This document shows positions 21,127 to 55,395 of a stretch of DNA of 55,395 nucleotides, one piece after another (positions within the stretch are counted from its first letter, which is position 1; every line of letters starts with the position of its first letter). Location of the stretch: the NCBI GenBank assembly GCA_964361785.1, contig CAYIBX010000005.1:1-55395 (forward strand), read 5' to 3'. The notes beneath the pieces are model-generated. The model did no database searches, had not been told where the DNA came from, and saw only the letters and a list, made by a program, of their open reading frames with translations. This stretch comes from an uncultured Gammaproteobacteria bacterium (lineage in GTDB: Bacteria > Patescibacteriota > Microgenomatia > UBA10105 > UBA927). Position numbers and translations under genes: made by a program.

Positions 21127-21684
21127 CTATTCACTGGCCTTACTGTTTTCTATCTCCACGTCAGTCTTCTTCTCATGTACCACCATCGCGGCTAAACTTC
21201 TGCCTTCCATGCGTGGTTCTCGTACTAATTTTACGACTCCTAAATCTTTTATAAATCGGTTCAGCACTTCAAATCCGAATTGTTTTCGTCCCAATTCTCG
21301 GCCTTTGTACAGAACAGTAATTTTGACTTGATTCCCATCAGCGAGAAATTCGTTGGCTCTTTTGAGTCTCGTGTCAAAATCATGCTGACCTATGAATGGA
21401 CGCAATCGAATTTCTTTTACCCCGACGTTTTTTTGCGTTTTTTTACTTTCCCGCTCTTTTCTAGCCTCTTGGTACTTAAATTTTTTGTAATCAATAAGTT
21501 TTGCTACCGGCGGCTTCGCGCTTGCGGATATTTCTACCACATCAAGCCCCAGCTCTTTGGCTTTCTGCAGTGCTTCAATTTTTGAAACGATGCCGATTTG
21601 TGCACCTTTATCATCCAGTAGCCGAATCGTCGGACTTTGGATCTGATAATTGATTTTATAAAATTTAAGTTGTTTTCCTTTCAA
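21127..21684 (-). CDS. infC: Translation initiation factor IF-3
   Basis: PPVAKLIDYKKFKY and KEIRLRP; non-ATG (TTG) start overlapping the thrS end. Confidence 0.95.
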   Translation of the reverse strand: MKGKQLKFYKINYQIQSPTIRLLDDKGAQIGIVSKIEALQKAKELGLDVVEISASAKPPVAKLIDYKKFKYQEARKERESKKTQKNVGVKEIRLRPFIGQHDFDTRLKRANEFLADGNQVKITVLYKGRELGRKQFGFEVLNRFIKDLGVVKLVREPRMEGRSLAAMVVHEKKTDVEIENSKASE

Positions 21685-23455
21685 TCTCGTCGGTTAACTT
21701 GGTGATAAATGTACTAAGGGGCATGCCCTTTAGCTCTTCACCACTTCTTGTACGCACAGAAACAGTGTTTGATTCTATTTCCGTATCCCCAATTATAGCC
21801 ATGTATGGCGTCTTTTGCAATGTGTGATATCGTATTTTAGCTCCCATTGGCTCACCTTTCGTATCTGCCTCCGCACGAATTTCTACTTTTTTTAATTCAT
21901 CTACTATTTGTTCTGCCTGCTTATTATGACGTTCGGCAATTGGGATTACAGCTACTTGTAAAGGTGAAAGCCAAAGAGGAAAAGCTCCGGTATAGAATTC
22001 GATAAGAAACGCTATGGTTCGTTCTATGGCTCCAACAGATGATCTATGGATGACGATAGGTTCTTGTTTGACACCGGTTTCGTTGGTGTATTCCAATGCA
22101 AAACGTTTTGGCATGACAAAGTCATATTGGACCGTAAAGGCAGTTTCTTCTTTCCCGTGAATGTTTTTCATTTGCACATCAATTTTCGGTCCATAAAAAG
22201 CTGCTTCGTTTGGTGCTTCATAATATTCTGCATTGCGGTCAATGAGCACCTTTCGTAATACCTGTTCAGCCCTGTCCCATGACGTATCGTCTGGAAAATA
22301 TTTTTTATCATCCTTTCTGTCTCCTAGAGATAGTCTATATCGGTAGTGTGTCCCCTGTTTCAGTCCAAAGGTATTAGATGCAAAATCTATAAGATCCAAA
22401 ACGCCATTGATTTCGTCAGTAGCCTGCTCCTTTGTCGCGATGATATGTGCATCTGCTAGACAGAAACTGCGGACACGCATGAGGCCTGATAGTTCGCCTG
22501 ATTTTTCAAAGCGATACAGTTTTGCTACTTCTGCTATTCGCATTGGTAATTCGCGATAACTCCTCGGTTGACTTCGATAGAGTTCAAAATGATGTGGACA
22601 TGTCATTGGGCGAAGCATGTATTCTTCATCCTCAATGTTAATAGGCGCATACATTGTATCTTTGTAATATGGATAATGACCGCTCGTTTTGTAAAGTGCT
22701 AGATTTGCTATATCTGGGGTGTATACGTGGCTATATCCTCGTTTTATTTCTTCATCGATAATAAATCGTTCTAAAATCCGACGAATAGTTGCTCCTTTTG
22801 CGGTCCAGAGGGGTAATCCTTTGCCAACAAGATCAGAAAAGACAAATAATCCAAGCTCAGTGCCTAGTTTTCGATGATCGCGTTTTTTGGCCTCTTCTTG
22901 CTGCAAGAGATATGTATCGAGTTCTGTTTTTTTCGGGAAGCACGTGCCGTAAATACGCGTCAGCATTTTGTTTTTCTCACTTCCCCGCCAATATGCTCCT
23001 GCAACAGAGAGGAGCTTAAAGTGTTTCAAATCATTATTGGGATGTGGACAATGGCCCCCTCGACAAAGATCCGTGTAGTCGCCAGATTTATAGAGCGTCA
23101 ATGTTTGACCTTCTAAACTAAATTCTTCTATAAGTTCTTTTTTGTACTCATTGTCTTTGAAAAATTTCATTGCTTCAGTTTTATTTGCTTCTATTCGTTC
23201 AAATCCTTTCCAAGACTTCACGAGTTCATGCATTTTTTGTTCAATTTTTTCAAAGTCTGCTTCTGAAACTTTTGTATCACCTCGGCCAGAGGCTGATCGT
23301 CCTTTGGACGAGAAGTCGAAATCATAATAAAAGCCGTGCTCTATTGCCGGCCCAATCGTTCGTTTGGCATCAGGATACAACTCCATTATTGCTGCTGCCA
23401 AAAGATGCGCACAGGAATGGCGAAGACATTCTAATTTTTTGTTATTATCTTCCAT
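21665..23455 (-). CDS. thrS: Threonine--tRNA ligase
   Basis: RHSCAHLLA, DLCRGGH, RDHRKLG, PMTCPHH, AFYGPKID; start 23455 has an AAGGAG SD. Confidence 0.97.
   Translation of the reverse strand: MEDNNKKLECLRHSCAHLLAAAIMELYPDAKRTIGPAIEHGFYYDFDFSSKGRSASGRGDTKVSEADFEKIEQKMHELVKSWKGFERIEANKTEAMKFFKDNEYKKELIEEFSLEGQTLTLYKSGDYTDLCRGGHCPHPNNDLKHFKLLSVAGAYWRGSEKNKMLTRIYGTCFPKKTELDTYLLQQEEAKKRDHRKLGTELGLFVFSDLVGKGLPLWTAKGATIRRILERFIIDEEIKRGYSHVYTPDIANLALYKTSGHYPYYKDTMYAPINIEDEEYMLRPMTCPHHFELYRSQPRSYRELPMRIAEVAKLYRFEKSGELSGLMRVRSFCLADAHIIATKEQATDEINGVLDLIDFASNTFGLKQGTHYRYRLSLGDRKDDKKYFPDDTSWDRAEQVLRKVLIDRNAEYYEAPNEAAFYGPKIDVQMKNIHGKEETAFTVQYDFVMPKRFALEYTNETGVKQEPIVIHRSSVGAIERTIAFLIEFYTGAFPLWLSPLQVAVIPIAERHNKQAEQIVDELKKVEIRAEADTKGEPMGAKIRYHTLQKTPYMAIIGDTEIESNTVSVRTRSGEELKGMPLSTFITKLTDEIERKTT
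23282..23311. repeat. 30-nt double-hairpin element read in-frame in thrS (SSKGRSASGR)
   Basis: TCGGCC-AGA-GGCTGA TCGTCC-TTT-GGACGA; near-identical copy at 49597-49626. Confidence 0.85.
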
Positions 23456-23471
23456 AAGTCTCCTTTGCAAT

Positions 23472-23610
23472 AAAAAAGTCACCCGTTCTTGTTGGAGCCC
23501 TTCAATTTCTCTAAAGGACGGTTCCATCCAACTTTGGTGACTTACTTTTCTATACTTCGCAATAGTGGCGCTCAGCTTTAGAGTTGGTTAGTCCCTATAC
23601 AAACGTTGAG
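23472..23610 (-). promoter_or_regulatory. Atypical compact Thr T-box leader
   Basis: TTGGATGGAACCGTCC T-box-like bulge with complementary GGGCTCCAAC; short 5' stem-loop whose loop ACTAACCAA holds Thr codons; U tract; TTGACA promoter at 23644-23649. Confidence 0.65.
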
Positions 23611-40081: not shown

Positions 40082-40108
40082 GTGGATCGTGTAGGATTTG
40101 AACCTACA
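40082..40108 (-). pseudogene. Isolated tRNA 3' fragment (T-arm plus acceptor strand)
   Basis: GTAGGTTCAAATCCTAC-ACGATCCA, about 18 nt downstream of tRNA-Val. Confidence 0.7.
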
Positions 40109-40126
40109 TTATATAAGATCCTTAAG

Positions 40127-40198
40127 TGGTCGGTGCAGGATTTGAACCTGCGACATCTGCAATGTGAATGCAGCGCTCTACCGCTGAGCTAACCGACC
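40127..40198 (-). tRNA. tRNA-Val(CAC)
   Basis: GGTCGGT/ACCGACC acceptor; CTGCA-TTCACAT-TGCAG anticodon arm. Confidence 0.95.
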
Positions 40199-40206
40199 AT
40201 ATCTTT

Positions 40207-40294
40207 ATGTGAATACAATGCTCTTCACCCGCGCCCGAACAAATTTGTTTTCAAATTTGCGCGGGTTCGGGTAAACCACTTCAGCTAGACGTCC
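40207..40294 (-). repeat. Degenerate tRNA-Val 5' half with a 50-nt palindromic insert in the D-loop
   Basis: GGACGTCTAGCTGAAGTGGT[TTACCCG...CGGGTGA]AGAGCATTGTATTCACAT. Confidence 0.75.
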
Positions 40295-40551
40295 TTCAAA
40301 TAATTTTTTAGTACTCTCTGTAAATAATTTCGTCCCCACTGCGTTTTAAAGAATTGTTCTCTACTCGTAGCATCTTGTTGATGCAAATACGCTTCGTAAT
40401 AGATTAGAATAAATGGCTTTCTATGTTTAGTACTTTCCACTTTGCCAGAGTTGTGATCTTGAAACCGACGCTTAAGGTTATCTGTATACCCTGAATAGTG
40501 TTTGTTATCGATTAAACTTCGTAAAATATATGTATAGTACACAGAATGCAA
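40285..40551 (-). CDS. Small GIY-YIG endonuclease
   Basis: YYTYIL...HYSGYT.NL.RR...HN.G...ST, ILIYYE, A..RE...K; start TTG 40551 or GTG 40542. Confidence 0.9.
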   Translation of the reverse strand: MHSVYYTYILRSLIDNKHYSGYTDNLKRRFQDHNSGKVESTKHRKPFILIYYEAYLHQQDATSREQFFKTQWGRNYLQRVLKNYLKDV

Positions 40552-40619
40552 CGCTCTTCACCCGTTCAAATTTTTGCATAGCAAAAACTTGTTCGGGTAA
40601 ACCACTGAGCTACAAGTCC
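40544..40619 (-). repeat. Degenerate tRNA-Val 5' half with a 43-nt palindromic insert in the D-loop
   Basis: GGACTTGTAGCTCAGTGGT[TTACCCG...CGGGTGA]AGAGCGTTGCATTC. Confidence 0.75.
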
Positions 40620-45936: not shown

Positions 45937-47652
45937 TTATATCGTAATAAATAGTCGGAGTATATCGCGAGGCGGCAAGGTGAGCATGGTCACGATGTCA
46001 GAAAGTGTAAATGCGCCGTCGCCGTTTACGTCGATTGGATACATTCTGGGCATGAGAATCGTTGACCCCTCTACCTTAATTGTTGCGATCGTTTGTCTTG
46101 GTAGGTACTGAGGAACGAGTAATACAACACGATAGGAATTGTTTGGCATGACATTTGTTAAATCAGAGATGATACCGATGCCATTTGCTATCAAGACTCC
46201 GTGTATTTTATGAATAACCTCGTCTTTATCGTAAATCAATACCGTGGCGTCTTTTGTATCGGTTCTTTTCTTCCATCCCAGTTGTACATGAAGTTTCACC
46301 GATGGCGGTGGAATGAGTGTTATTGTGCCAGTTTGCAGAGTGACGCCTCGGTTATAGTGAGTGATGGAGAGAGTGTAGGGGAAAGTCCCTTCAATATTTG
46401 GTACGCGAAGATGAAGGCGAACTTCGCCAGTTTCCCCTGGTTCTATGGTTGGCAATGAGTCAGTAATTGAGATAAATTCCTTTGGGCCATCAATCTGTAG
46501 TGTATATCCATCTTTATGCGAAATGATAGATTGTCCTGTGTTTGAAATTTTTGACGTGAGAGTGACGGATGAATTTTTGACAAGTGCGTCAGGTATCATA
46601 GGATAATCGAGTTTGTACGATTCTCTCTGAAACGGTGTGCCGCGTGTTTTTGGTATCGTTTGATACGCAAAGTAGTGTGCGTAAAAATCGTTTGAATCTA
46701 ATTTTTTCCAAGAAAAATGATCAAACGGTAATCCTTGGTAGTTAAAGATAAATGGGGTGATTGCGACAATGGATTTATCTGCCCACGCAAAGGCAGCGGC
46801 TTGCTTGAGTGCTTCCCCTACTGCATCTGGCGACAAGAGTCCATAATTTGATGAAACACCAAACGAGTGAACCCACCCAGTTTCAGTGATGAAGATAGGA
46901 TACGCTTTAGTTACACCGAGAGATCGAAGATACGCTTGTTCCCATGCGAAGGATTGCACTGTGCCTTTTCCTGAAGCATATGCTGAACCAGAAAAGGCAG
47001 GGTTAGGATAGGAGTGAGACGTCCATCCATCCAATACTTTAAATAGCTCTGGTGTAGTGGTAAACATTGTTTTCAAATACGTTGATGCTTCAAGGGATTT
47101 ATCATCAGATGCTGCTGAGACATCAAGACCTGCTGGTAAAACGAAATAATCCTCAGAAGCACGATGAAGCGCTATTGTAAATGCGAGTGCAATTTCTGCA
47201 TATCCTTGAGGATCAATTTTTCTTCCCCACTCGTTGGCATGATTCGGTTCATTAAACAAGATTATATATCTGTTTTCTATTGGCCAATTTAGTGAGTTGA
47301 GAAATGATACCCAATCTTTTATGCCATCAACACCCGGTTTTTTCCATGCATCGCCATCTATCGTTGTTGCAAGCCGTATAATTGGAATAAGGTGATCTCG
47401 ACGCATGGTGTTAAAGACGGCCTGCCATTTTTCTTTGTTTCTATCATCTTCTTGAATAACGAGCGTCACGTATCCCCAATCACCTTCATTGCTATTTACC
47501 AACGAACTGATTTCAGAGATATCGTTTGGATCGACGATGTGTATTCCGAATTTATTATTTGGCGTATCTGAGGGATTAAACTTAGCGTTAGCTACTGGTG
47601 AAATGAAGAAAAATAGTATGAGCAGGATAAAATAATTAGCGATGCATTGCAT
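45937..47652 (-). CDS. Secreted GH-A-like glycoside hydrolase with Ig-like and dockerin/EF-hand-like tail
   Basis: FNEPN, SHSYP, FITETGW, DVNGDG. Confidence 0.7.
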   Translation of the reverse strand: MQCIANYFILLILFFFISPVANAKFNPSDTPNNKFGIHIVDPNDISEISSLVNSNEGDWGYVTLVIQEDDRNKEKWQAVFNTMRRDHLIPIIRLATTIDGDAWKKPGVDGIKDWVSFLNSLNWPIENRYIILFNEPNHANEWGRKIDPQGYAEIALAFTIALHRASEDYFVLPAGLDVSAASDDKSLEASTYLKTMFTTTPELFKVLDGWTSHSYPNPAFSGSAYASGKGTVQSFAWEQAYLRSLGVTKAYPIFITETGWVHSFGVSSNYGLLSPDAVGEALKQAAAFAWADKSIVAITPFIFNYQGLPFDHFSWKKLDSNDFYAHYFAYQTIPKTRGTPFQRESYKLDYPMIPDALVKNSSVTLTSKISNTGQSIISHKDGYTLQIDGPKEFISITDSLPTIEPGETGEVRLHLRVPNIEGTFPYTLSITHYNRGVTLQTGTITLIPPPSVKLHVQLGWKKRTDTKDATVLIYDKDEVIHKIHGVLIANGIGIISDLTNVMPNNSYRVVLLVPQYLPRQTIATIKVEGSTILMPRMYPIDVNGDGAFTLSDIVTMLTLPPRDILRLFITI

Positions 47653-47668
47653 GATAAAAACTATTCTG

Positions 47669-47740
47669 CGCTCCCAGAAGGAATCGGACCTTCATCTACT
47701 CTTTAGAAGAGAGTTGCTCTATCCATTGAGCTATGAGAGC
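47669..47740 (-). tRNA. tRNA-Arg(TCT)
   Basis: ACTCT-CTTCTAA-AGAGT anticodon arm; T-loop reads TCCGATT. Confidence 0.9.
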
Positions 47741-47771
47741 AGTATTTGTATTATACTGTATTAGTAGGTAT

Positions 47772-49484
47772 TTAATGAAGATCAGCCCTTCGTTCTTTAA
47801 GATATTTGCTCCAACTTTCAATAAAATCAAGAATTACCACCATCGGTGTTTCAATCAAAAAGGTAAAGAGTATTGCTACAATATTATATTCTTTCCATTT
47901 GGCTGCTAAAAATGAGCCTACGCGGGCAATAGGCACAGAAAGCATGTCCATAAAAAATTCAAAGATGCTAGACGAGTCATCTACTGTAAGTTCTTTGGAT
48001 TTGTTTCGGATTAAGACTGCAGCAAAAAATGTGAGTGCTATGGTAAACGTATCAAAGATGACTGATGTGATAGGAAGTTTGGCGATATAGAATATATATC
48101 CAGCACCTCCCAATACCCCAAACATCATAAACGTATAGAGTATACTAGCAAAAAGATTGAAGAATTTGTTTCTTCGCTTTTTAAGATAGACGTCATAAAG
48201 CATCATCTTTTCTCCAGAATATGTGCTTTGTGTCACTGCGGTAAGTACGCTTTTTATATTCTCGGCTCCGGGTGCTTTGATGATTGAAACTAAAAGCGCC
48301 ATGACGACAGTGGGAACGACGAAATCAATCGTTGCAGTAAACCAATTAAAGCCTTCGTAAAATATGGACGCTAGTGGTATCTCAACGATAAAAAATGTAG
48401 CCCAATTGGATAAAAACACGGAAAGTGTCGAGAAAATTGCAAGCCGCATAAGCCGAGACTTCAAGGAATGATAGCGTTTATCATAGGCAGTAGTTATTTC
48501 TTCTAGGTATCGTTCTTTGTTGCCAAATAATTTTTGTAGCTCCTCTGTCTTATCTTTATAGGTATCCAAAAGATCACCGATAAGCATATAGACAGTGTCC
48601 ATACGCTCACAAATCGCGTAAAATTGTCGAGCGAGAGGGTGTTCGAGTACATGGCTCGATCCTTCCCAAAGTGCCGGTATGTCTTTCGTATAGAGAGCGA
48701 GGTCTTCTTCTGATGGCATACTCCACGATTTGTAGGAAAATTTAATGAGTTGCGCCATGATAAATGTATCATCCAAATCAAAAAGTGTGCGGCAGACTGC
48801 TATGTAGACCTGAGTTTTTTTCTCATCGTCATTCATAGTTCCGTCTGGTCGTACTCGAATCCTGTCACTCATCATTTTCGTCATTGTTTCTAGAAGTACG
48901 CGTTCTTTGACTGGCGTGGTAAGGATTTCCTCAATTTCGCACGCGGCAAGTTCAATAATAAACATGGCAAAATTGATTTGCTGTTTTAATGGGATGTGCT
49001 CAAATTTTGTAAATTTGGCATGCGCGAGGATGTATAAATATTTTTTGAGAGCAGTCTCAATTACAACGACACTTTCTTCCGGTATTTCATCGTTTAGAAG
49101 ATGTCCGCCGCGAATAAGGTCAGCTGTGATGGTATAGGCTACTCGATAGGTATCCACGTTTGGGGTGAGGGTGAGTTTAGAAAGTTTGGGAAACAATGTG
49201 CGCTTAAGGACTCTCTCTGTAGCACTTCGACGGAGTGCGTTATCCTCTTTCCAGTCGACAACCTTTCGTATCATTTCGTAAAATTTGGCGACACGAAGGG
49301 CAATATCATCTATATGGATTGGTGTAACTGCTTTTTTTGCCAAATTTAGCCCCGAGATGTAGTCATCAAGCATTTTCTGAATATGGGGAAGGAGCTCACG
49401 TATAGGCGCACCTTCTTCAACTGCAACAAGGGGCAAAATTTCGCGGGTCTCTCCTTTTTCTTCGTGGTCTTTTGTGTCTGACAT
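47772..49484 (-). CDS. Hypothetical membrane protein
   Basis: Long ORF with helical N-terminal part and several C-terminal TM segments. Confidence 0.7.
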   Translation of the reverse strand: MSDTKDHEEKGETREILPLVAVEEGAPIRELLPHIQKMLDDYISGLNLAKKAVTPIHIDDIALRVAKFYEMIRKVVDWKEDNALRRSATERVLKRTLFPKLSKLTLTPNVDTYRVAYTITADLIRGGHLLNDEIPEESVVVIETALKKYLYILAHAKFTKFEHIPLKQQINFAMFIIELAACEIEEILTTPVKERVLLETMTKMMSDRIRVRPDGTMNDDEKKTQVYIAVCRTLFDLDDTFIMAQLIKFSYKSWSMPSEEDLALYTKDIPALWEGSSHVLEHPLARQFYAICERMDTVYMLIGDLLDTYKDKTEELQKLFGNKERYLEEITTAYDKRYHSLKSRLMRLAIFSTLSVFLSNWATFFIVEIPLASIFYEGFNWFTATIDFVVPTVVMALLVSIIKAPGAENIKSVLTAVTQSTYSGEKMMLYDVYLKKRRNKFFNLFASILYTFMMFGVLGGAGYIFYIAKLPITSVIFDTFTIALTFFAAVLIRNKSKELTVDDSSSIFEFFMDMLSVPIARVGSFLAAKWKEYNIVAILFTFLIETPMVVILDFIESWSKYLKERRADLH

Positions 49485-49512
49485 AGAGTACTCTTTAAAA
49501 GAAAATCTTGTG

Positions 49513-49583
49513 AGCGGATGAAGGGAATCGAACCCTCGTCACCAGTTTGGAAAACTGGCGCTCTACCATTGAGCTACACCCGC
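49513..49583 (-). tRNA. tRNA-Gly(TCC)
   Basis: CCAGT-TTTCCAA-ACTGG anticodon arm; U73. Confidence 0.95.
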
Positions 49584-49586
49584 AAT

Positions 49587-49638
49587 TCTACCATTGTCAG
49601 CCCAAGGCTGATCGTCCTTTGGACGAAGCTACACCCGC
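49587..49638 (-). repeat. Duplicated tRNA-Gly 5' end interrupted by the 30-nt double-hairpin element
   Basis: GCGGGTGTAGCT[TCGTCCAAAGGACGATCAGCCTTGGGCTGA]CAATGGTAGA, 3 nt upstream of the intact GCGGGTGTAGCTCAATGGTAGA. Confidence 0.9.
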
Positions 49639-49686
49639 TGAGTGTCTTAGGTATTATATCTTGTTTTTCCATCCTTGTCTTTTTCA

Positions 49687-50124
49687 CTACCGATCGAGAA
49701 ATTGCACCGAATCTCCTATGTTGATGCCCGTTGATTGGATAATTCCTGCATTTACTTCAAGTATTTTATCAGCTACTGTATCGGGCTTAACGATAGCTGG
49801 CAAAAGGCCTGTGGGGGCAGGTATATTTTCGCGCAAGTCAACCACTGTATTATCTTTTATCCAGATAAAATCGAGAGGAAACTTCATGCCTTTCATCCAA
49901 AACTCATATTTTTCTTTGTGATCGTACACAAAAAGCATGCCATGATTTGAAGCGAGACTGTCCCTACCGCCTAAACCTTTCATTTTTTCAAAAGAAGTCA
50001 CGGCAACATCGACAGAGAATGTGTGTGTGCCTATGCGTACTTTTGCTATCAATGGATTTTTTCGATAGTAGAGCCCGTAAAGCAAAAGAATACTTACGAT
50101 AATAACGATTACATAGAGTTTCAT
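49687..50124 (-). CDS. DUF192 family protein
   Basis: GLGGR...GMLFVY...FWMKGMKFPLDFIWI...LEVNAG. Confidence 0.9.
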   Translation of the reverse strand: MKLYVIVIIVSILLLYGLYYRKNPLIAKVRIGTHTFSVDVAVTSFEKMKGLGGRDSLASNHGMLFVYDHKEKYEFWMKGMKFPLDFIWIKDNTVVDLRENIPAPTGLLPAIVKPDTVADKILEVNAGIIQSTGINIGDSVQFLDR

Positions 50125-50128
50125 ATGA

Positions 50129-51094
50129 TTATTCCTCCCGCATGCCGCAAAATTCGATAAGTTCTTTTAATGTTTGTTTGTAGATATTCTCGATTGGCAG
50201 TTTCTGGAGAGTTTGTTTCGCCAGATCTTCATAATGCTTCATTATTTTTTGAATTAGAATAAATGCAGTACTCTTCGGATAGTCTGCTGAATTTTCTTCT
50301 TGAAGAAATAAGCGGATAAGGGTTTGCTTCTTATTTTTTTCATCTGATCCAATTGGTTTACCGGTCTTTATAATGTCCCCCATGACGCTGAGCTCATCGT
50401 CACGAATTTGAAAGAGTATACCTATAGACTGTCCGAGTGATTCTAAGATTTTAAGTGTAGATACGTCAGTGTTTGCTAATAGTCCTCCCATAATAAGAGG
50501 CAAAGAAAATGTGTATCGTGCTGTTTTGGTGCGATATAACGAAATAATTTCTTCTTCGGTTGATTTATACGGAAGATATGATGACGCGACATCAAACTGT
50601 TGTGCGACCGTTACAGTCGCAAATTCTTGACTTGCGAGAGAAATAAGGTAAGACGAATTTGGTGAAGTTATTTTGGAAAACTGTTCAAATGCCAAAAAGA
50701 AACACAAATCACCTATATTTATCGCCATACCTTCACCAAAGTGTTTGTCAGTAGAAAACTGATCAAATTGTCTGTGCATCGATTTTAGATGACGTCTCAT
50801 GTCATCTTGATCCATAATGTCGTCGTGGATAAGAGCGCCAGCGTGAATGAATTCGAGACCCGCTGCTAAGGGGAGAGCAATCTTTATCTGGTTACTTTTT
50901 GCAAACATATTGTAGGAGAAAAGCGCCAAACACCCTCTTACACTTTTACCTGCGGTAATAAAGGGCAATAGTCGAGTAATACTTTCTTTTCCCCATGAGT
51001 TTATGCCACCCAGTGCTGTTTTTTTTTCGGTAAGAAATGCAGTGAGATACTCGTCTAGGACTTTTTTATGGGCAAATAGATTATCAAGAACCAT
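50129..51094 (-). CDS. Polyprenyl diphosphate synthase
   Basis: GKSVR, LIHDDIMDQDDMRR, KTA.Y, FQIRDD. Confidence 0.92.
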   Translation of the reverse strand: MVLDNLFAHKKVLDEYLTAFLTEKKTALGGINSWGKESITRLLPFITAGKSVRGCLALFSYNMFAKSNQIKIALPLAAGLEFIHAGALIHDDIMDQDDMRRHLKSMHRQFDQFSTDKHFGEGMAINIGDLCFFLAFEQFSKITSPNSSYLISLASQEFATVTVAQQFDVASSYLPYKSTEEEIISLYRTKTARYTFSLPLIMGGLLANTDVSTLKILESLGQSIGILFQIRDDELSVMGDIIKTGKPIGSDEKNKKQTLIRLFLQEENSADYPKSTAFILIQKIMKHYEDLAKQTLQKLPIENIYKQTLKELIEFCGMREE

Positions 51095-51153
51095 AGTACC
51101 GTTATTGTATAAGGTTTGGTACAATAATGCAGTACGCGGGACAAAAAATATTT

Positions 51154-51218
51154 CGGGACGCAAGTTTCTTCCAGAGGGCTATCAACCTTTGGTTGAAGCC
51201 TATGGTTGACAGTTGGTA
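51154..51218 (+). repeat. Duplicated tRNA-Pro 5' end interrupted by a 43-nt triple-hairpin insert
   Basis: CGGGACGCAAGTT[TCTTCCAGAGGGCTA TCAACCTTTGGTTGA AGCCTATGGTTGA]CAGTTGGTA versus intact CGGGACGTAGTTCAGTTGGTA. Confidence 0.75.
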
Positions 51219-51227
51219 CATATATAT

Positions 51228-51303
51228 CGGGACGTAGTTCAGTTGGTAGAATGCGCGCTTTGGGAGCGTGAGGTCGAGAGTTCGAATCTCTCCGTCCCGA
51301 CCA
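51228..51303 (+). tRNA. tRNA-Pro(TGG)
   Basis: CGCGC-TTTGGGA-GCGTG anticodon arm; CCA encoded. Confidence 0.95.
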
Positions 51304-51312
51304 AACACCAAA

Positions 51313-51630
51313 TCAAACGAAATGATAGAGCTGTGCTGATAAATCTACCTTGTTTGATGAAATAAAGGTTATGCCTTCAAGTTCCAATCGATTTTTCTGT
51401 TCATCTGGTCCCCCAAATACGTATCCAGATGCAAGTCTGCCATCGGAAAATACGACGCGATGACAGGGCACAGTCGTAGCGTCAGTATTTGCATGCAGCG
51501 CATGACCCACGCGCCGAGCGTCTTTAGTTCCCATTGCCTTTGCTATTTCTCCGTACGTGGTGACATACCCCACAGGAACACGTTTCACGAGTGTATAGAC
51601 GCGTTGGAAAAATGGCAACGTTGTATCCAT
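51313..51630 (-). CDS. O6-alkylguanine DNA alkyltransferase-family (MGMT) protein
   Basis: TTYGEIA, ARRVG, VPCHRVV. Confidence 0.88.
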   Translation of the reverse strand: MDTTLPFFQRVYTLVKRVPVGYVTTYGEIAKAMGTKDARRVGHALHANTDATTVPCHRVVFSDGRLASGYVFGGPDEQKNRLELEGITFISSNKVDLSAQLYHFV

Positions 51631-51640
51631 GAACGTATTG

Positions 51641-52315
51641 TTATACTAACGTATTACCAAATGCAAACATTTTATCGACCAACTGTTGTTTTAGATCCAT
51701 ATCAGCCTTGCCAGGTATTTCTGGATTGAGAACCCGATCTGATTTATGATCCATGATAAGCCAACGCATAGAAAATCCTGTGTCGTGATGCCCAAGTATT
51801 GGTGTGTGGATATATCCTTTTTCTACGTGCAGGGCCAATTTTTTGTCGGCTGGATCATCAATACCGGTAAAAAGGCTCGCGTTGGTTTGCGTAACCAAAT
51901 TTCGATATACTTGTAATTGCTCGTGAGACAAACTGTGAGAATCATACATATAAAATGACGTACGTCGGTCAGGATCTTCGTGAAACGCAATACAGAGTGA
52001 GAATGCAAACGGTTCTAAAATTTTTATGGCCGTTATAACTTCTGGATCAGTTGGGTTATGGACGAATTCACGATTCAAATCGTGTCCGAACATATTGCGT
52101 CTCGTTTTTAACCTTACTGCGGAGGGGCTTAATTTAGGAATATAGACGTAATCAGGGAGTGAAGGTTGATGCGAGTCTATGTACTCTGTCACACAGCCAG
52201 TCACTTCCAATTCATCACCATGAGTGCCGGACAATATCAACAGTTTTGGATGAGCGCCGCGAACATGGTATGAAGTTTGTTTTAAAGTGCGCGTGACAAT
52301 TGGCATGGTTGACAT
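51641..52315 (-). CDS. M14-type metallopeptidase / succinylglutamate desuccinylase-aspartoacylase family protein
   Basis: GTHGDE, RRN...DLNR, FHED; real start lies downstream of tRNA-Leu. Confidence 0.75.
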   Translation of the reverse strand: MSTMPIVTRTLKQTSYHVRGAHPKLLILSGTHGDELEVTGCVTEYIDSHQPSLPDYVYIPKLSPSAVRLKTRRNMFGHDLNREFVHNPTDPEVITAIKILEPFAFSLCIAFHEDPDRRTSFYMYDSHSLSHEQLQVYRNLVTQTNASLFTGIDDPADKKLALHVEKGYIHTPILGHHDTGFSMRWLIMDHKSDRVLNPEIPGKADMDLKQQLVDKMFAFGNTLV

Positions 52316-52322
52316 ATTTTTG

Positions 52323-52407
52323 TGCCGGGGGTGGGACTCGAACCCACACGAGGGTTTAATCTCACAAGATTTTAAGTCTTGCGCGTATACCATTTCGCCA
52401 CCTCGGC
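52323..52407 (-). tRNA. tRNA-Leu(TAA)
   Basis: CAAGA-CTTAAAA-TCTTG anticodon arm; no intron. Confidence 0.95.
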
Positions 52408-52434
52408 ATTAGCTTTCGCTATTATACCAATAAA

Positions 52435-53421
52435 CTACTCTTGTGTAAGTATCTTTGGAATTGATGAGTGAATTTTCGTTAATTTGCCGATATAAAACCC
52501 TTCCATAGTAGGACTTGGGGTTACTCGTTTCGTTTGGACAATTGATTTATGATATTTTTTATCTCCCCAATTCACAAGCCCTTGTGTGAGCGGAGCGTTT
52601 TGAAGATCTATGGGGACAACTTGCACATTCCCCTTTTCTTTTTTAAGCACCCAATCTATGACTTGTTCGTTTTCTTCTGGAGAGAGTGTACAGGTTGAAT
52701 ACACAATGGTGCCGCCAGCTTTTGTGGCACTTATGGCTGAGCGTAATATCCATTTTTGCAAAGACATCATGTCTTTTATCTTTTTCAGAGACCAATCTTT
52801 ATAGGAGTCAGGTTGGTCACATGAAAACCTAGCTTCCATGCTACAAGGTACATCCGCGAGCGTGCAATCGAAGAATTCTGGATATTTTTGCCAGATACTT
52901 CTCGCATCATTTTCGACTATTCGTACGCTTCGGGCATCTTGACGTTCTCTATTGGCTTGTAATCGGTAAATTCTAATTCTACTTGAATCATTTGCCGTAA
53001 TACGACCACGATTTTTCATATAAACGGCGAGTTGTGTAGCTTTACTTCCGGGTGCTGCGCAAATATCCAACACCTTATCCGTGTCTTTGGGCGCGAGTAC
53101 AAGAGCGGGAATCATGCTTGATAAATTTTGAATATAAATTTGTCCTTTGGTATATTGCACAGTGTCAGTAAGTTCTCGAAGTGTTTTTGATTTGAGAATA
53201 AACGCTTCGTAGTACCATGCAACGGGTTCGGTTTCAAATCCTTGCGCATTAAGAGCTAGGATAACTTCATTTACCGATAATTTAATGGTATTTACACGAA
53301 ACGTCGTAGGCTTTGGCGCCTTGAATGTATCTAAGATTTGGTTGGTGCTATTTCCATAGAGCTGTGTGAGTCTTCGAATAAATTCTACAGGAAGTGGTGA
53401 TATGAGGTTTTGATCTGTCAT
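52435..53421 (-). CDS. RsmB/RsmF (NOL1/NOP2) RNA m5C methyltransferase
   Basis: YIQNLSSM, DICAAPGSK, DVPCS, YSTCTLSPEENE. Confidence 0.92.
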   Translation of the reverse strand: MTDQNLISPLPVEFIRRLTQLYGNSTNQILDTFKAPKPTTFRVNTIKLSVNEVILALNAQGFETEPVAWYYEAFILKSKTLRELTDTVQYTKGQIYIQNLSSMIPALVLAPKDTDKVLDICAAPGSKATQLAVYMKNRGRITANDSSRIRIYRLQANRERQDARSVRIVENDARSIWQKYPEFFDCTLADVPCSMEARFSCDQPDSYKDWSLKKIKDMMSLQKWILRSAISATKAGGTIVYSTCTLSPEENEQVIDWVLKKEKGNVQVVPIDLQNAPLTQGLVNWGDKKYHKSIVQTKRVTPSPTMEGFYIGKLTKIHSSIPKILTQE

Positions 53422-53479
53422 AGGTACTTCTATTGTACCGCGTTCGGATAGCGCGTTGCTATGGTATACTTTCGTCATA

Positions 53480-53561
53480 GCCGAAGTGGCGAAACTGGTA
53501 GACGCGCACGCTTCAGGTGCGTGTGGGGCAACCTTTGGAGGTTCGAGTCCTCTCTTCGGCA
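53480..53561 (+). tRNA. tRNA-Leu(CAG)
   Basis: CACGC-TTCAGGT-GCGTG anticodon arm. Confidence 0.95.
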
Positions 53562-53593
53562 CAAGGATTTTAAATGATATAATGCAAAATATT

Positions 53594-53664
53594 GCGGTTG
53601 TGGTTCAATGGTAGAACACGTCCTTGCCAAGGATGAGGCGGGAGTTCGATTCTCCTCAGCCGCT
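53594..53664 (+). tRNA. tRNA-Gly(GCC)
   Basis: CGTCC-TTGCCAA-GGATG anticodon arm. Confidence 0.95.
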
Positions 53665-53683
53665 CATGAAGTTGTATAAAAAA

Positions 53684-53759
53684 TGCCGAGTGGTGTAACG
53701 GTAACACGCCTGACTTTGGATCAGCGCGACTCTAGGTTCGAATCCTAGCTCGGCAGCCA
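53684..53759 (+). tRNA. tRNA-Gln(TTG)
   Basis: TGCCGAG/CTCGGCA acceptor; CTGA-CTTTGGA-TCAG; CCA encoded. Confidence 0.92.
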
Positions 53760-55253
53760 GTAAGAATTGGAAAGAGGTCGGGAGGTAGCGCTTTCCGCGC
53801 CCGCCTCCGCGGAAAGCGCGTCAAATCCGCCTTTTTTGAAACTTGCGGACAGCCGCCGATCCTTTAAAAAGAAGTTCGAGCCGACAGTTTTTGCCATGAT
53901 CGATAAATCATGGCAACTATTTTTTGCGCGCGCGAGTTTGTGCGCTGTAAGCGCACTATTTACGAATTCGGCAAAAGGTTCGAGCCATTCAACGCCGTTT
54001 TGAGAAATTTCCTTAATTTTGGAGTTAAGAAGCGATTTTGTTTCGACTAATTCATTTTTCTTTTTTTGATAATCCTCGGGAGAAATAATTTTATCTAAAT
54101 AACCCTCAAGCAAACGGTCTGTCTTTTCTTCTGTTTCTTTGAGTTGGAGTTGATAAGTTGAAACAATTCCCGATGATTTTTCTTTTTCTAGGCCTGCATC
54201 TTTACCTGCCCACTCAAGAAACTTTTTTGCGGCGGGCGGCGGCAAAGATGCTCGCAAAACAATATCCTTTAATTGTTTCTCAATCTCTTCTTTATCAATA
54301 TATTTTTGCGGGCAAGCACCCATTTTCTTAGAGCAACGGTAGTAGATATACTCGACTTTTCTATTTGTTCGTTTGTAATACTTGGTGTGCTTTTCTGCGG
54401 TGATTGCGCCGCAACACTCGCCACACTTAGCTAAACCCAGAAAATCAAACAAGTGTTTGTTATTCTTCACTTTGCGGCTTTTCAGCTTGACTACTTCCTG
54501 GCATTTATCAAAAAGTTTCTTGCTTATTAGGGGCGGATGTTGTCCCTCGTAAAGTTCGCCGCAAAATTTCATCACTCCGTAGTAAAACGGATCAGTCAAC
54601 ATTCTTTTGACTTTATCAAGGTGAAGTTCATGACCGGACTTGTTGAAAATTTTGTTTTGGTTGAAAAATTTGCGGATATCCGCATAGCCGTAGCCGCCGG
54701 TAGCAAAAAGCTGAAAAGCTTTTTGCACATACTTGGTTCGCTTCTTATCAACCTCTATTTTCTTGTTGATGTTTAAGTAGCCAAATGGCGCTTGATTCGG
54801 CCACTCGCCGCGGCGGAGTTTTTGGCGATTGCCCCGCTTTACATTTTCGGAAAGATTATCAACATAATATTTTGACTGACCAAAAGCGATATTAAGCATA
54901 AATTTCCCTTGAGGCGTATTTTCAAACCAAAAGGATGGAAATTTCAAGTCAAGTAATTTTCCAGTGTCCAATAAGTAGATAATCTTTCCGCCATCAACAG
55001 AATTTCTGGCCAAACGGTCGGGATGCCACGATAAAATTCCATCAGCTTTTCCGTCCTCAATTTCTTTTAGTACTTCTGCAAATTTTTCCCGACCGGGTTC
55101 TTTAGCGGTTTTGCTCTCGGTAATAAAAGAAACAATTTTCAAATTTTCTTTTGCGGCGAATTCTTCTAATTCTGCAACTTGAGCTTCAATAGACAAAATT
55201 TGTCTGTCAGGTTCATCGGTTGATTTTCTGTAATACGCAATATATTTGATCAT
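53745..55253 (-). mobile_element. Large serine recombinase of an element integrated at tRNA-Gln
   Basis: YYRKST catalytic Ser, DRLARN, recombinase domain, CGEC...YYRC zinc ribbon, coiled coil; stop codon lies inside the tRNA-Gln 3' end. Confidence 0.92.
53809..53858. repeat. Left arm of a perfect 50-bp inverted repeat
   Basis: GCGGAAAGCGCGTCAAATCCGCCTTTTTTGAAACTTGCGGACAGCCGCCG is the reverse complement of 55346-55395. Confidence 0.9.
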
Positions 55254-55345
55254 GTTTATATTTAATCTCTAAAAGTTCTTTAACGAACGATAGTGAGTGC
55301 CTTTCTTTCAAGAAAGGCTAATTTTTGCGTTTTTTCTTCTTTTTC

Positions 55346-55395
55346 CGGCGGCTGTCCGCAAGTTTCAAAAAAGGCGGATTTGACGCGCTTTCCGC
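55346..55395. repeat. Right arm of the inverted repeat (runs to the window end)
   Basis: Exact reverse complement of 53809-53858. Confidence 0.9.

Follow-up and report, generated by a model that had tools for sequence, protein, structure and literature searches.

A hairpin-split 5' copy of tRNA-Pro(UGG) ahead of the intact gene: a probable gene-less remnant of a tRNA-nested GIY-YIG nuclease cassette in a bacterium of the candidate phyla radiation

The stretch of DNA analysed (the window) comprises 55,395 nucleotides (nt), positions 1–55,395 of the forward strand of contig CAYIBX010000005.1 (assembly GCA_964361785.1), from a bacterium deposited as an uncultured gammaproteobacterium and placed by GTDB in Patescibacteriota (Microgenomatia; UBA10105; UBA927). 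Upstream of its intact tRNA-Pro(UGG) gene, on the same strand, lies a partial copy of the 5' part of that gene, here called the stump (51154–51218), which is split between tRNA nt 12 and 13 by a 43-nt palindromic insert. The original prediction, made from the letters of the window, had described this layout and a similar one at tRNA-Gly(UCC), and had proposed that 15-nt hairpin units are gained or expanded in a site-specific manner. The 91 base pairs (bp) between the conserved promoter segment and the live tRNA-Pro are best read as insertion debris and no working part of the tRNA. The module is probably the gene-less remnant of a tRNA-nested nuclease cassette together with a palindromic mini-element, formed by a mechanism that we infer below. 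The order of parts in such cassettes, which are common in this class of ultra-small bacteria, is: promoter, hairpin-split tRNA 5' stump, small single-domain GIY-YIG gene, intact tRNA. This link to small GIY-YIG nuclease genes was not part of the original prediction and was found in the follow-up. The genome of the window is coded G000 and the other genomes compared carry codes of the type G001; a twin is a pair of adjacent 15-nt hairpins.

The tRNA-Pro(UGG) locus

Features of the locus (tRNA numbering counted from the first nt of the intact gene):
51117–51125, plus strand: box TGGTACAAT, extended −10-like, putative promoter of the ancestral tRNA-Pro (read by eye and from conservation)
51137–51142, plus strand: first mini-stump CGGGAC, tRNA nt 1–6, at the ancestral gene start (tRNA start in G006, stump start in G011)
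51143–51153, plus strand: A/T-rich spacer AAAAAATATTT, without counterpart in G006
51154–51166, plus strand: left part of the stump, CGGGACGCAAGTT, tRNA-Pro nt 1–12 with T8>C and one extra A
51167–51209, no strand: GC-rich palindromic insert of 43 nt at nt 12/13, folding as one imperfect hairpin on both strands
51182–51196, no strand: the sole perfect 15-nt 6-3-6 hairpin unit, TCAACCTTTGGTTGA (TCAACC-TTT-GGTTGA)
51210–51218, plus strand: right part of the stump, CAGTTGGTA, tRNA-Pro nt 13–21 (9/9 identical)
51219–51227, plus strand: spacer CATATATAT, 9 nt, new 5' leader of the intact gene
51228–51303, plus strand: intact tRNA-Pro(UGG) with encoded CCA (ARAGORN; Rfam tRNA, 67.8 bits)
51304–51310, plus strand: seven additional bases relative to the sister genomes, giving ACCAAAC-ACCAAAT (alignment gap)

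The strings and positions quoted for 51154–51303 in the original prediction were all recovered in a sequence check; the mini-stump at 51137–51142, a further copy of the tRNA start, had been overlooked. The TGGTACAAT box would act as the ancestral tRNA-Pro promoter; the segment GGTTTGGTACAATAATGCAGTA was identical across G000, G011 and G006, and in G006 the tRNA starts 11 nt past it. A consensus promoter/terminator scan of 50950–51400 gave no hits and no two-hexamer promoter. The spacer CATATATAT is presumably too short to hold a promoter of its own, and the gap of just 9 nt between stump and intact tRNA contains no GIY-YIG open reading frame (ORF). The tRNA itself was 100% identical to the G011 and G006 copies, and the fold of leader plus tRNA retained the tRNA-Pro cloverleaf. 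The seven additional bases at 51304–51310 might, as a weak indication from the alignment, mark a right-hand junction. An Rfam 15 scan of 47000–55395 at E up to 1 returned the tRNAs and one sub-threshold plastid match lying on another tRNA; no Rfam family matched the stump/hairpin region.

Chance occurrence of the layout was assessed by exact words: a copy of tRNA nt 1–7, followed within 100 nt by a 7-mer from nt 10–26, was searched inside the 400 nt upstream of each tRNA. The test was positive for 2/46 tRNAs of G000 (Gly-UCC and Pro-UGG); 500 shuffles of the upstream regions gave a mean of 0.024 and a maximum of 1, and permuted tRNA/upstream pairs a mean of 0.14. The layout is not a chance match. 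With stricter words (10-mer plus 8-mer, at most one mismatch each) only Gly was detected (1/46), Pro being missed owing to its extra base.

In another study, an RNA library yielded a 163-nt contig that matched 51178–51340 without any difference, and the Pro allele was also present in contigs of the probable source runs; the run data were examined as contigs, in which transcript ends and minor empty-site alleles are not visible. A joint of 51305 to 51440 in X8 belonged to a contig of a different organism and was disregarded. The RNA-library contig is a weak hint at co-transcription of leader and tRNA, with DNA carry-over possible. Since independent contigs carry the identical allele, and the layout recurs in dozens of genomes, an assembly artefact is ruled out. 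The same holds for practical purposes for an attachment-site scar of the integrase type. Integration into tRNA genes is classical, islands are bordered by partial tRNA copies, and in integrase islands and prophages a partial tRNA repeat stands beside an intact tRNA, the gene being restored by the inserted DNA. Here, however, the repeated part is the 5' part of the tRNA and not the 3' part; the repeats are tens to about 300 bp apart and interrupted by a palindrome; no integrase is present; the insertion amounts to 91 bp in all, which leaves no room for an element; and the neighbours are housekeeping genes in conserved order. Scar and artefact can be regarded as refuted.

Empty and filled loci in related genomes

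The tRNA-Pro loci were taken from 40 relatives, and the three closest genomes (G000, G011 and G006) were aligned. The flanks are syntenic in all three (polyprenyl synthetase / methylguanine methyltransferase domain gene, Pfam). At the 11 genus-level Pro(UGG) loci, nine were empty (G006 and 8 others), with the tRNA directly after the conserved promoter; G000 and G011 were filled. In G006 the tRNA-Pro sits directly behind GGTACAATAATGCAGTATA; in G011 the same promoter is followed by CGGGACGTAGTT, then TCTCGCGAAGCGAGA TCAGGCTTCGCCTGA, CAGTTGG, a 52-nt spacer and the tRNA, that is, by a stump of nt 1–12 and nt 13–19 that is interrupted between nt 12 and 13, as in G000, but by a twin hairpin of other sequence. 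The inserted sequences of G000 and G011 could not be aligned with each other, although the flanks of these two align well (493/629 aligned columns identical). The stretch upstream of tRNA-Pro is an insertion, polymorphic within the genus, and because the relatives have empty loci the stump marks the old gene start and the live gene has been shifted 91 nt downstream. The additional CGGGAC of G000 suggests two successive events. The claim of a recurrent, position-specific process was borne out by this comparison: one and the same site is occupied by a different twin in G011 and vacant in nine genus members.

The tRNA-Leu(UAA) locus, 1 kb from the Pro module, exists in three states. It is empty in G000; in G011 it is a full cassette (stump, 40-nt hairpin, 80-aa GIY-YIG ORF, tRNA); in G006 the ORF is lacking, and the stump hairpin, which is of the G011 type in opposite orientation, is broken by a 37-nt insert, the stump carrying in addition a twin hairpin at the 12/13-equivalent site. 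These full, gene-less and empty states are the best support for the Pro and Gly modules as gene-less derivatives. The Pro, Gly, Val and Leu tRNA loci each differ among the three genomes: the sequence elements are turned over between sister genomes. tRNA genes are among the most conserved of genes, yet sister species here gain and lose sequence at the 5' ends of these genes with particular frequency.

The 43-nt insert and the twin-hairpin element

Insert at tRNA-Pro: The 43 nt folded as one extended imperfect stem (DNA, −9.5 and −8.5 kcal/mol on the two strands; z −3.6 and −3.2). Degenerate stretches of 15 nt and 13 nt lie on the two sides of 51182–51196, the second of them being similar to a unit, TCAGCCTATGGCTGA, found in G035; the loops are AGA, then TTT. 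The three hairpin units originally described were not recovered, only 51182–51196 being a perfect 6-3-6 hairpin within a nested stem. The insert has the loop order of the twins but one perfect unit; it is 43 nt long, folds as a single stem and falls outside the twin search pattern. It may belong to the twin-hairpin family as a degenerate copy, probably a nested one; the G006 Leu(UAA) stump with its nested insert is the best support for this assignment.

Insert at tRNA-Gly(UCC): The architecture given for this locus in the original prediction was exact.
49584–49638, minus strand: tRNA-Gly(UCC) module consisting of nt 1–12, a 30-nt twin (49597–49626), nt 13–22 and ATT, followed by the tRNA

The Gly insert consists of two perfect 15-nt hairpins (−10 kcal/mol, z −5.6) and fits the twin definition fully. 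In G006 the tRNA-Gly(UCC) lies 12 nt past its TATAAT box, and in G000 the stump lies 14 nt past its own TATAAT box; as at Pro, the Gly stump marks the old gene start. A derivation of the last hairpin arm as a copy of tRNA nt 10–12 (GCT at Gly, GTT at Pro) was tried and rejected as coincidence; it fails in G011 and in an Arg-like stump.

Twin-hairpin element: By definition a twin has the 6-3-6 hairpin YCNNSC-NNN-GSNNGR two times in direct succession, the first loop being rich in purines and the second in pyrimidines. G000 contains 12 perfect tandem hairpin pairs, against 0 and 2 in two shuffles. The pattern YCNNSCNNNGSNNGR repeated twice was present in 29/41 relatives (0–32 copies per genome), the reversed pattern, used as control, in 0/41. 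Stem positions vary between copies with pairing preserved, a further point in favour of a recurrent, position-specific process. The loop order was kept in 127/129 twins, and the order at Pro is the same; the whole 30-mer is palindromic at 11/15 positions on average. The two strands of the twin thus have much the same reading, and a role at the level of DNA is favoured.

A further copy of the twin interrupts a protein gene of the window.
23282–23311, no strand: twin in the threonyl-tRNA synthetase gene (21665–23527, minus strand; identity from Pfam), a clean in-frame 30-nt insertion, 27/30 identical to the Gly copy

The insertion adds SSKGRSASGR to the protein, is absent from 5/5 relatives and is without target duplication. 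The twin is a discrete mobile 30-mer. Of note for annotation, 30-nt palindromes add 10 residues to essential proteins.

These data bear on the process originally proposed, in which single 15-nt units are added or expanded at nt 12/13 in numbers that vary among tRNAs. The difference in length between Pro (43 nt) and Gly (30 nt), the one perfect unit between two degenerate ones at Pro and the occurrence of hairpins nested in hairpins would all fit such an expansion. Two-unit arrays, however, numbered 142 in G000 and all fetched loci, and the three apparent triplets were AT-rich chance extensions, with no true three-unit array; the constancy of loop order means that insertion proceeds by whole 30-mers; at Pro the fold is a single nested stem; and no set of close strains was seen in which the number of units at a given site ranged over 1, 2, 3 or 4. 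The proposal gave way to insertion of a fixed 30-nt twin, as in the threonyl-tRNA synthetase gene, and unit expansion is scarcely credible.

Insertion sites: The survey covered 129 distinct twin sites in the whole of G000 and the fetched loci; the 30-mer was removed and the joined flanks were aligned to 146 tRNAs. Loci entered the survey through the nuclease or through the hairpin pattern, and only for G000 can the fractions be taken as rates for a whole genome. Above the 99th percentile of 300 random joins were 15/129 sites, and 3 more were clear by eye, giving 18 tRNA-like junctions; in tRNA numbering: 12/13, n = 10; 17, n = 2; 33, n = 2; 36, n = 2; 53, n = 1; 9, n = 1. An intact tRNA on the same strand lay 10–283 nt away at 16 of the 18. 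The site 12/13 recurs, and the site-specificity of the original prediction stood. Insertion is not confined to this site, positions 9, 17, 33, 36 and 53 being occupied too and most twin sites not being tRNA-like at all. Outward from the twin the flanks read C in 44% (background 20%), A in 68% (background 29%) and A in 49%; the sequence GYT^CAR at nt 12/13 agrees with this C-A-A preference.

Twins without a stump were also observed: at G000 C8:25767–25796 a twin abuts the first base of tRNA-Glu(CUC), between a TATAAT box and the gene, and a similar one precedes tRNA-Pro(CGG) in G002 (L022). In relatives (L033, L034, L035, L013 and L029) several tRNA genes are closely preceded by a further conserved hairpin, GTTGGGRAAAAACCGTWAGGTTTYNCCCAG.

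Could the stump and hairpin form a functional 5' leader, an acceptor/D-arm decoy that regulates processing, stability or expression of the pre-tRNA-Pro? Lying between promoter and tRNA they must be transcribed, the RNA-library contig covers hairpin, tRNA and trailer, and the hairpin folds better than shuffles. Against this, the layout is absent from 9/11 genus-level orthologous loci, the inserted sequence is wholly different in G000 and G011, translation of a protein gene runs through another copy of the element, its likeness on both strands (loop order in 127/129 twins) points to DNA and not RNA, the Pro copy is degenerate, and Rfam gave no match. Because the insert is neither conserved nor strand-specific, a leader function is quite improbable.

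GIY-YIG nuclease cassettes beside tRNA genes

The hairpin-split stump layout was found at 7 tRNA loci in G000. The genome has 6 small GIY-YIG ORFs (PF01541), 5 of them beside tRNAs: three lie between a hairpin-split stump and an intact tRNA (Leu-GAG, Gly-CCC and Val-CAC), two downstream of tRNA-Ser genes and one elsewhere. The Val cassette is in the window.

40082–40619, minus strand: full tRNA-Val(CAC) cassette (ORF, Pfam PF01541, 54 bits)
Within it, minus strand, ahead of the ORF: stump 1, nt 1–18, a 45-nt hairpin and nt 22–40
40285–40551, minus strand: GIY-YIG ORF, its stop codon being the TAG of stump 2 nt 8–10
Within it, minus strand, between ORF and tRNA: stump 2, nt 1–19, a 52-nt hairpin and nt 22–37
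40126–40198, minus strand: live tRNA-Val(CAC)
40082–40107: 26-nt 3' fragment of another, Val(GAC)-like tRNA, after the live tRNA

G006 and G011 are without insertion at this locus. The ORF stop coincides with the TAG of tRNA nt 8–10 in four cassettes (G000 Val and Gly-CCC; tRNA-Ile of G015 and G014). In the site survey, 5/18 tRNA-like twin sites had a gap of 254–283 nt to the tRNA; a GIY-YIG ORF was found in the gaps of four translated relatives and in the Leu-GAG gap of G000, broken in one case. Homologues of the full cassette occur in other genomes.

The family was present in 113/151 genomes of the class, and 30 class-wide matches were examined: in 13 the tRNA begins 0–16 nt after the ORF, with hairpin-split stumps upstream; in 7 a tRNA ends 64–157 nt before the ORF, the order being tRNA-Ser or tRNA-Glu, then ORF; in 1 the tRNA lies 172 nt downstream; in 9/30 no tRNA was found within the checked stretches (up to 250 nt downstream, 400 nt upstream). 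The cassette stumps carry several hairpin families: the CCCCGC-N4-GCGGGG type in 5/5 Trp cassettes, and a long TTTACCCG... type in the Val cassettes of G000 and of the distant genome G049. Because the Trp and Val families recur across cassettes, it seems that the four parts (stump, hairpin, ORF and tRNA) are kept or transferred as a set; compared by eye in about 12 cassettes, hairpin family gave a mixed picture against nuclease clade or tRNA identity. In G029 the nuclease gene and a new tRNA-Cys lie together between the 5' and 3' fragments of an old tRNA-Cys, and these fragments have hairpins in the D, anticodon and T loops.

The cassette proteins are single-domain GIY-YIG proteins of 82–88 aa without a DNA-binding domain. 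The closest solved relatives of the window nuclease were the UPF0213 proteins 1ywl (E 8e-7) and 1zg2; NCBIfam gave sub-threshold matches only, to a group I intron endonuclease family.

Comparison of the 46 tRNAs with G000 by blastn-short gave mostly 13–15-nt noise and one clear fragment, the Val 3' piece of 26 nt, besides a D-arm-like candidate of 20 nt on C12. For annotation, hairpin-split stumps cause contig breaks and can be mistaken for tRNA pseudogenes or leader elements.

Origin of the tRNA-Pro module

By analogy, the Pro locus was filed as a gene-less derivative of such a cassette. The putative part of the nuclease, repair-driven homing and the succession of steps would be as follows. 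Insertion events would strike the 5' part of a tRNA gene, leaving its original start behind the promoter as a dead stump, with an intact tRNA gene regenerated downstream. The nuclease would cut the tRNA gene in the D-arm region, and the lesion would be repaired from a cassette-bearing copy; the donor stump would serve as left homology arm and the donor tRNA as right arm, all between them being copied in and the essential tRNA restored. The nuclease gene would be deleted later. Palindromes would insert preferentially before CA(A) steps, e.g. GYT^CAR at nt 12/13, and would persist only in the dead copy, where they would break up the direct repeat or the target. Transcription of the tRNA would proceed from the old promoter through the stump, giving a leader of about 95 nt for removal by RNase P.

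Several points weigh against this origin. No nuclease gene or recognisable remnant of one was found at Pro in the 11 genus-level Pro(UGG) loci, and the decayed cassette is argued there by analogy with Leu(UAA). The 52-nt spacer of G011, compared with all loci and G000, had no informative match and none in cassettes, so there is no evidence for it as a decayed ORF. The regenerated tRNA keeps the presumed target, and simple homing would need an unexplained immunity; the first gain of a stump matching a new tRNA species is likewise unexplained. The enzyme activity is a predicted one. Twin sites outside tRNA-like DNA make up 111 of the 129, twins also insert without duplication, as in the threonyl-tRNA synthetase gene, and hairpin insertion and duplication may be separate processes.

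That last possibility is the main rival. It holds that two independent processes acted and that a nuclease cassette was never present at Pro: slippage or faulty break repair would have duplicated the leader and nt 1–21, and a trans-mobilised twin would then have entered the dead copy at the preferred T^CA (nt 12/13), insertions into live genes being lethal and so unseen. The clean 30-mer in the threonyl-tRNA synthetase gene, the hairpins nested within hairpins in the G006 Leu stump, the CA(A) flank preference and the lack of an ORF remnant at Pro agree with it, as do the dead tRNA-Cys fragments of G029, which have hairpins in the D, anticodon and T loops and lie on both sides of the live gene. 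Hairpin-free stumps are, however, almost absent (in G000 only the 6-nt CGGGAC and the one 26-nt 3' fragment), and separate processes would therefore need very high insertion rates into targets of about 20 nt. Nor would they account readily for a nuclease ORF that exactly fills the 254–283-nt gap in identical layouts at 5/18 tRNA-like sites, or for the full and gene-less forms of Leu(UAA) in sister genomes. Separate processes were judged unlikely on this balance; the remnant of a nuclease cassette is retained as the probable origin of the Pro module.

A wider proposal is put forward tentatively and may well not hold. The 30-nt twins, the other hairpin families and the 82–88-aa GIY-YIG nucleases could together form an undescribed, self-repairing homing system lodged between a tRNA and the promoter of that tRNA. 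The nuclease would recognise a DNA hairpin (the D arm or the palindrome) in single-stranded DNA (ssDNA) and cut near nt 12/13; repair would copy in palindrome, nuclease gene and a fresh 5' end; the old copy would become a hairpin-blocked stump, and gene-less stumps would be non-autonomous or decayed forms. If true, such a system would cause tRNA genes to be turned over rapidly and replaced horizontally in bacteria of the candidate phyla radiation (CPR). If the link between nuclease and hairpin holds, it would be a new way for a selfish gene to occupy an essential gene without killing it, and very small DNA nucleases directed to hairpins or tRNA genes, of interest to biotechnology, could probably be drawn from it (cf. 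the Ssn family). In the literature covered (few subscription journals), no description of hairpin-split tRNA stumps or of tRNA-nested GIY-YIG genes in CPR was found.

Comparison with known systems

SegB: In phage T4, SegB is a free-standing GIY-YIG homing endonuclease whose gene lies among tRNA genes and is reported to be inherited preferentially, along with the tRNA region beside it, once the competing allele has been cleaved (PMC2330249). The intron-less GIY-YIG gene is common to both. SegB is larger, multi-domain and of phage origin, whereas the proteins described here have 82–88 aa and a single domain, belong to a cellular CPR genome and are predicted nucleases; unlike segB, the gene is nested between tRNA promoter and tRNA and leaves behind a hairpin-split target stump.

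Ssn: These single-domain GIY-YIG ssDNA nucleases are flanked by hairpin repeats (NTS/SRM) (Chenal et al. 2025, PMC11893778). Very small stand-alone GIY-YIG proteins, dispersed 20–50-nt hairpin repeats and an insertion sequence (IS)-like hairpin-gene-hairpin layout are shared features. As a difference, the word "tRNA" does not occur in the main text of PMC11893778. Ssn proteins are defined by clade cd10448 and site-specific ssDNA cleavage; the proteins here match the Pfam GIY-YIG domain. The window protein is nearest to the UPF0213 structures 1ywl and 1zg2. The SRM motif HGTCWY..RNCYNB was not enriched in G000 (1 match, against 0, 2, 3, 6 and 0 in five shuffles), and none was found near the G000 nuclease genes or stumps.

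Small palindromes: G000 has two Y1-transposase-like genes (PF01797), the flanks of which carry another repeat, CCTACNAGGAGAGTCCTTGTAGG, and no twin. An assignment of the twins to the REP/RAYT type was rejected, as they do not flank Y1 (HUH) transposase genes. A reading of the conserved GTAG (tRNA nt 7–10) plus hairpin as a REP-like Y1 substrate was also discarded; the flank preference is CAA/AAA and the transposase genes carry the other repeat. REP/REPIN sequences with RAYT transposases, the Rickettsia palindromic elements and the very small dispersed repeats of cyanobacteria are likewise tiny, GC-rich, dispersed palindromes, some of them in frame in protein genes and some nested. Unlike these elements, as they are generally described, the 30-nt twins consist of two 6-3-6 hairpins and are strongly associated with tRNA stumps.

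Further observations

Palindrome CCTACNAGGAGAGTCCTTGTAGG: Copies flank a Y1-transposase-like gene at G000 C11:13853–14549 and at C32:5641; there are four full copies in G000, and an incomplete one adjoins the Arg-like stump of contig C16.

GIY-YIG ORFs downstream of tRNA-Ser: At G000 C3:74940–75334 and C42:914–1294 related GIY-YIG ORFs share a GC-rich structured spacer of about 130 nt. At C42:1295–1380 ARAGORN called a putative tRNA-Ser with the unusual anticodon ACT.

Upstream of the tRNA-Gly(UCC) position in G011 (L036:4317–4976, G011 C38), where G000 has the Gly stump: An ORF of 220 aa was found, with a helix-turn-helix-like start and a LAGLIDADG-like motif, both read by eye; Pfam assigned no family to this ORF. 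Contig C38 ends inside the ORF, and the next contig begins in the last bases of the tRNA-Gly.

GIY-YIG ORF in ribosomal RNA: In L204 (G175 C8, about 491–742) a GIY-YIG ORF lies within the 3' end region of the 16S rRNA, with conserved 16S sequence on both sides.

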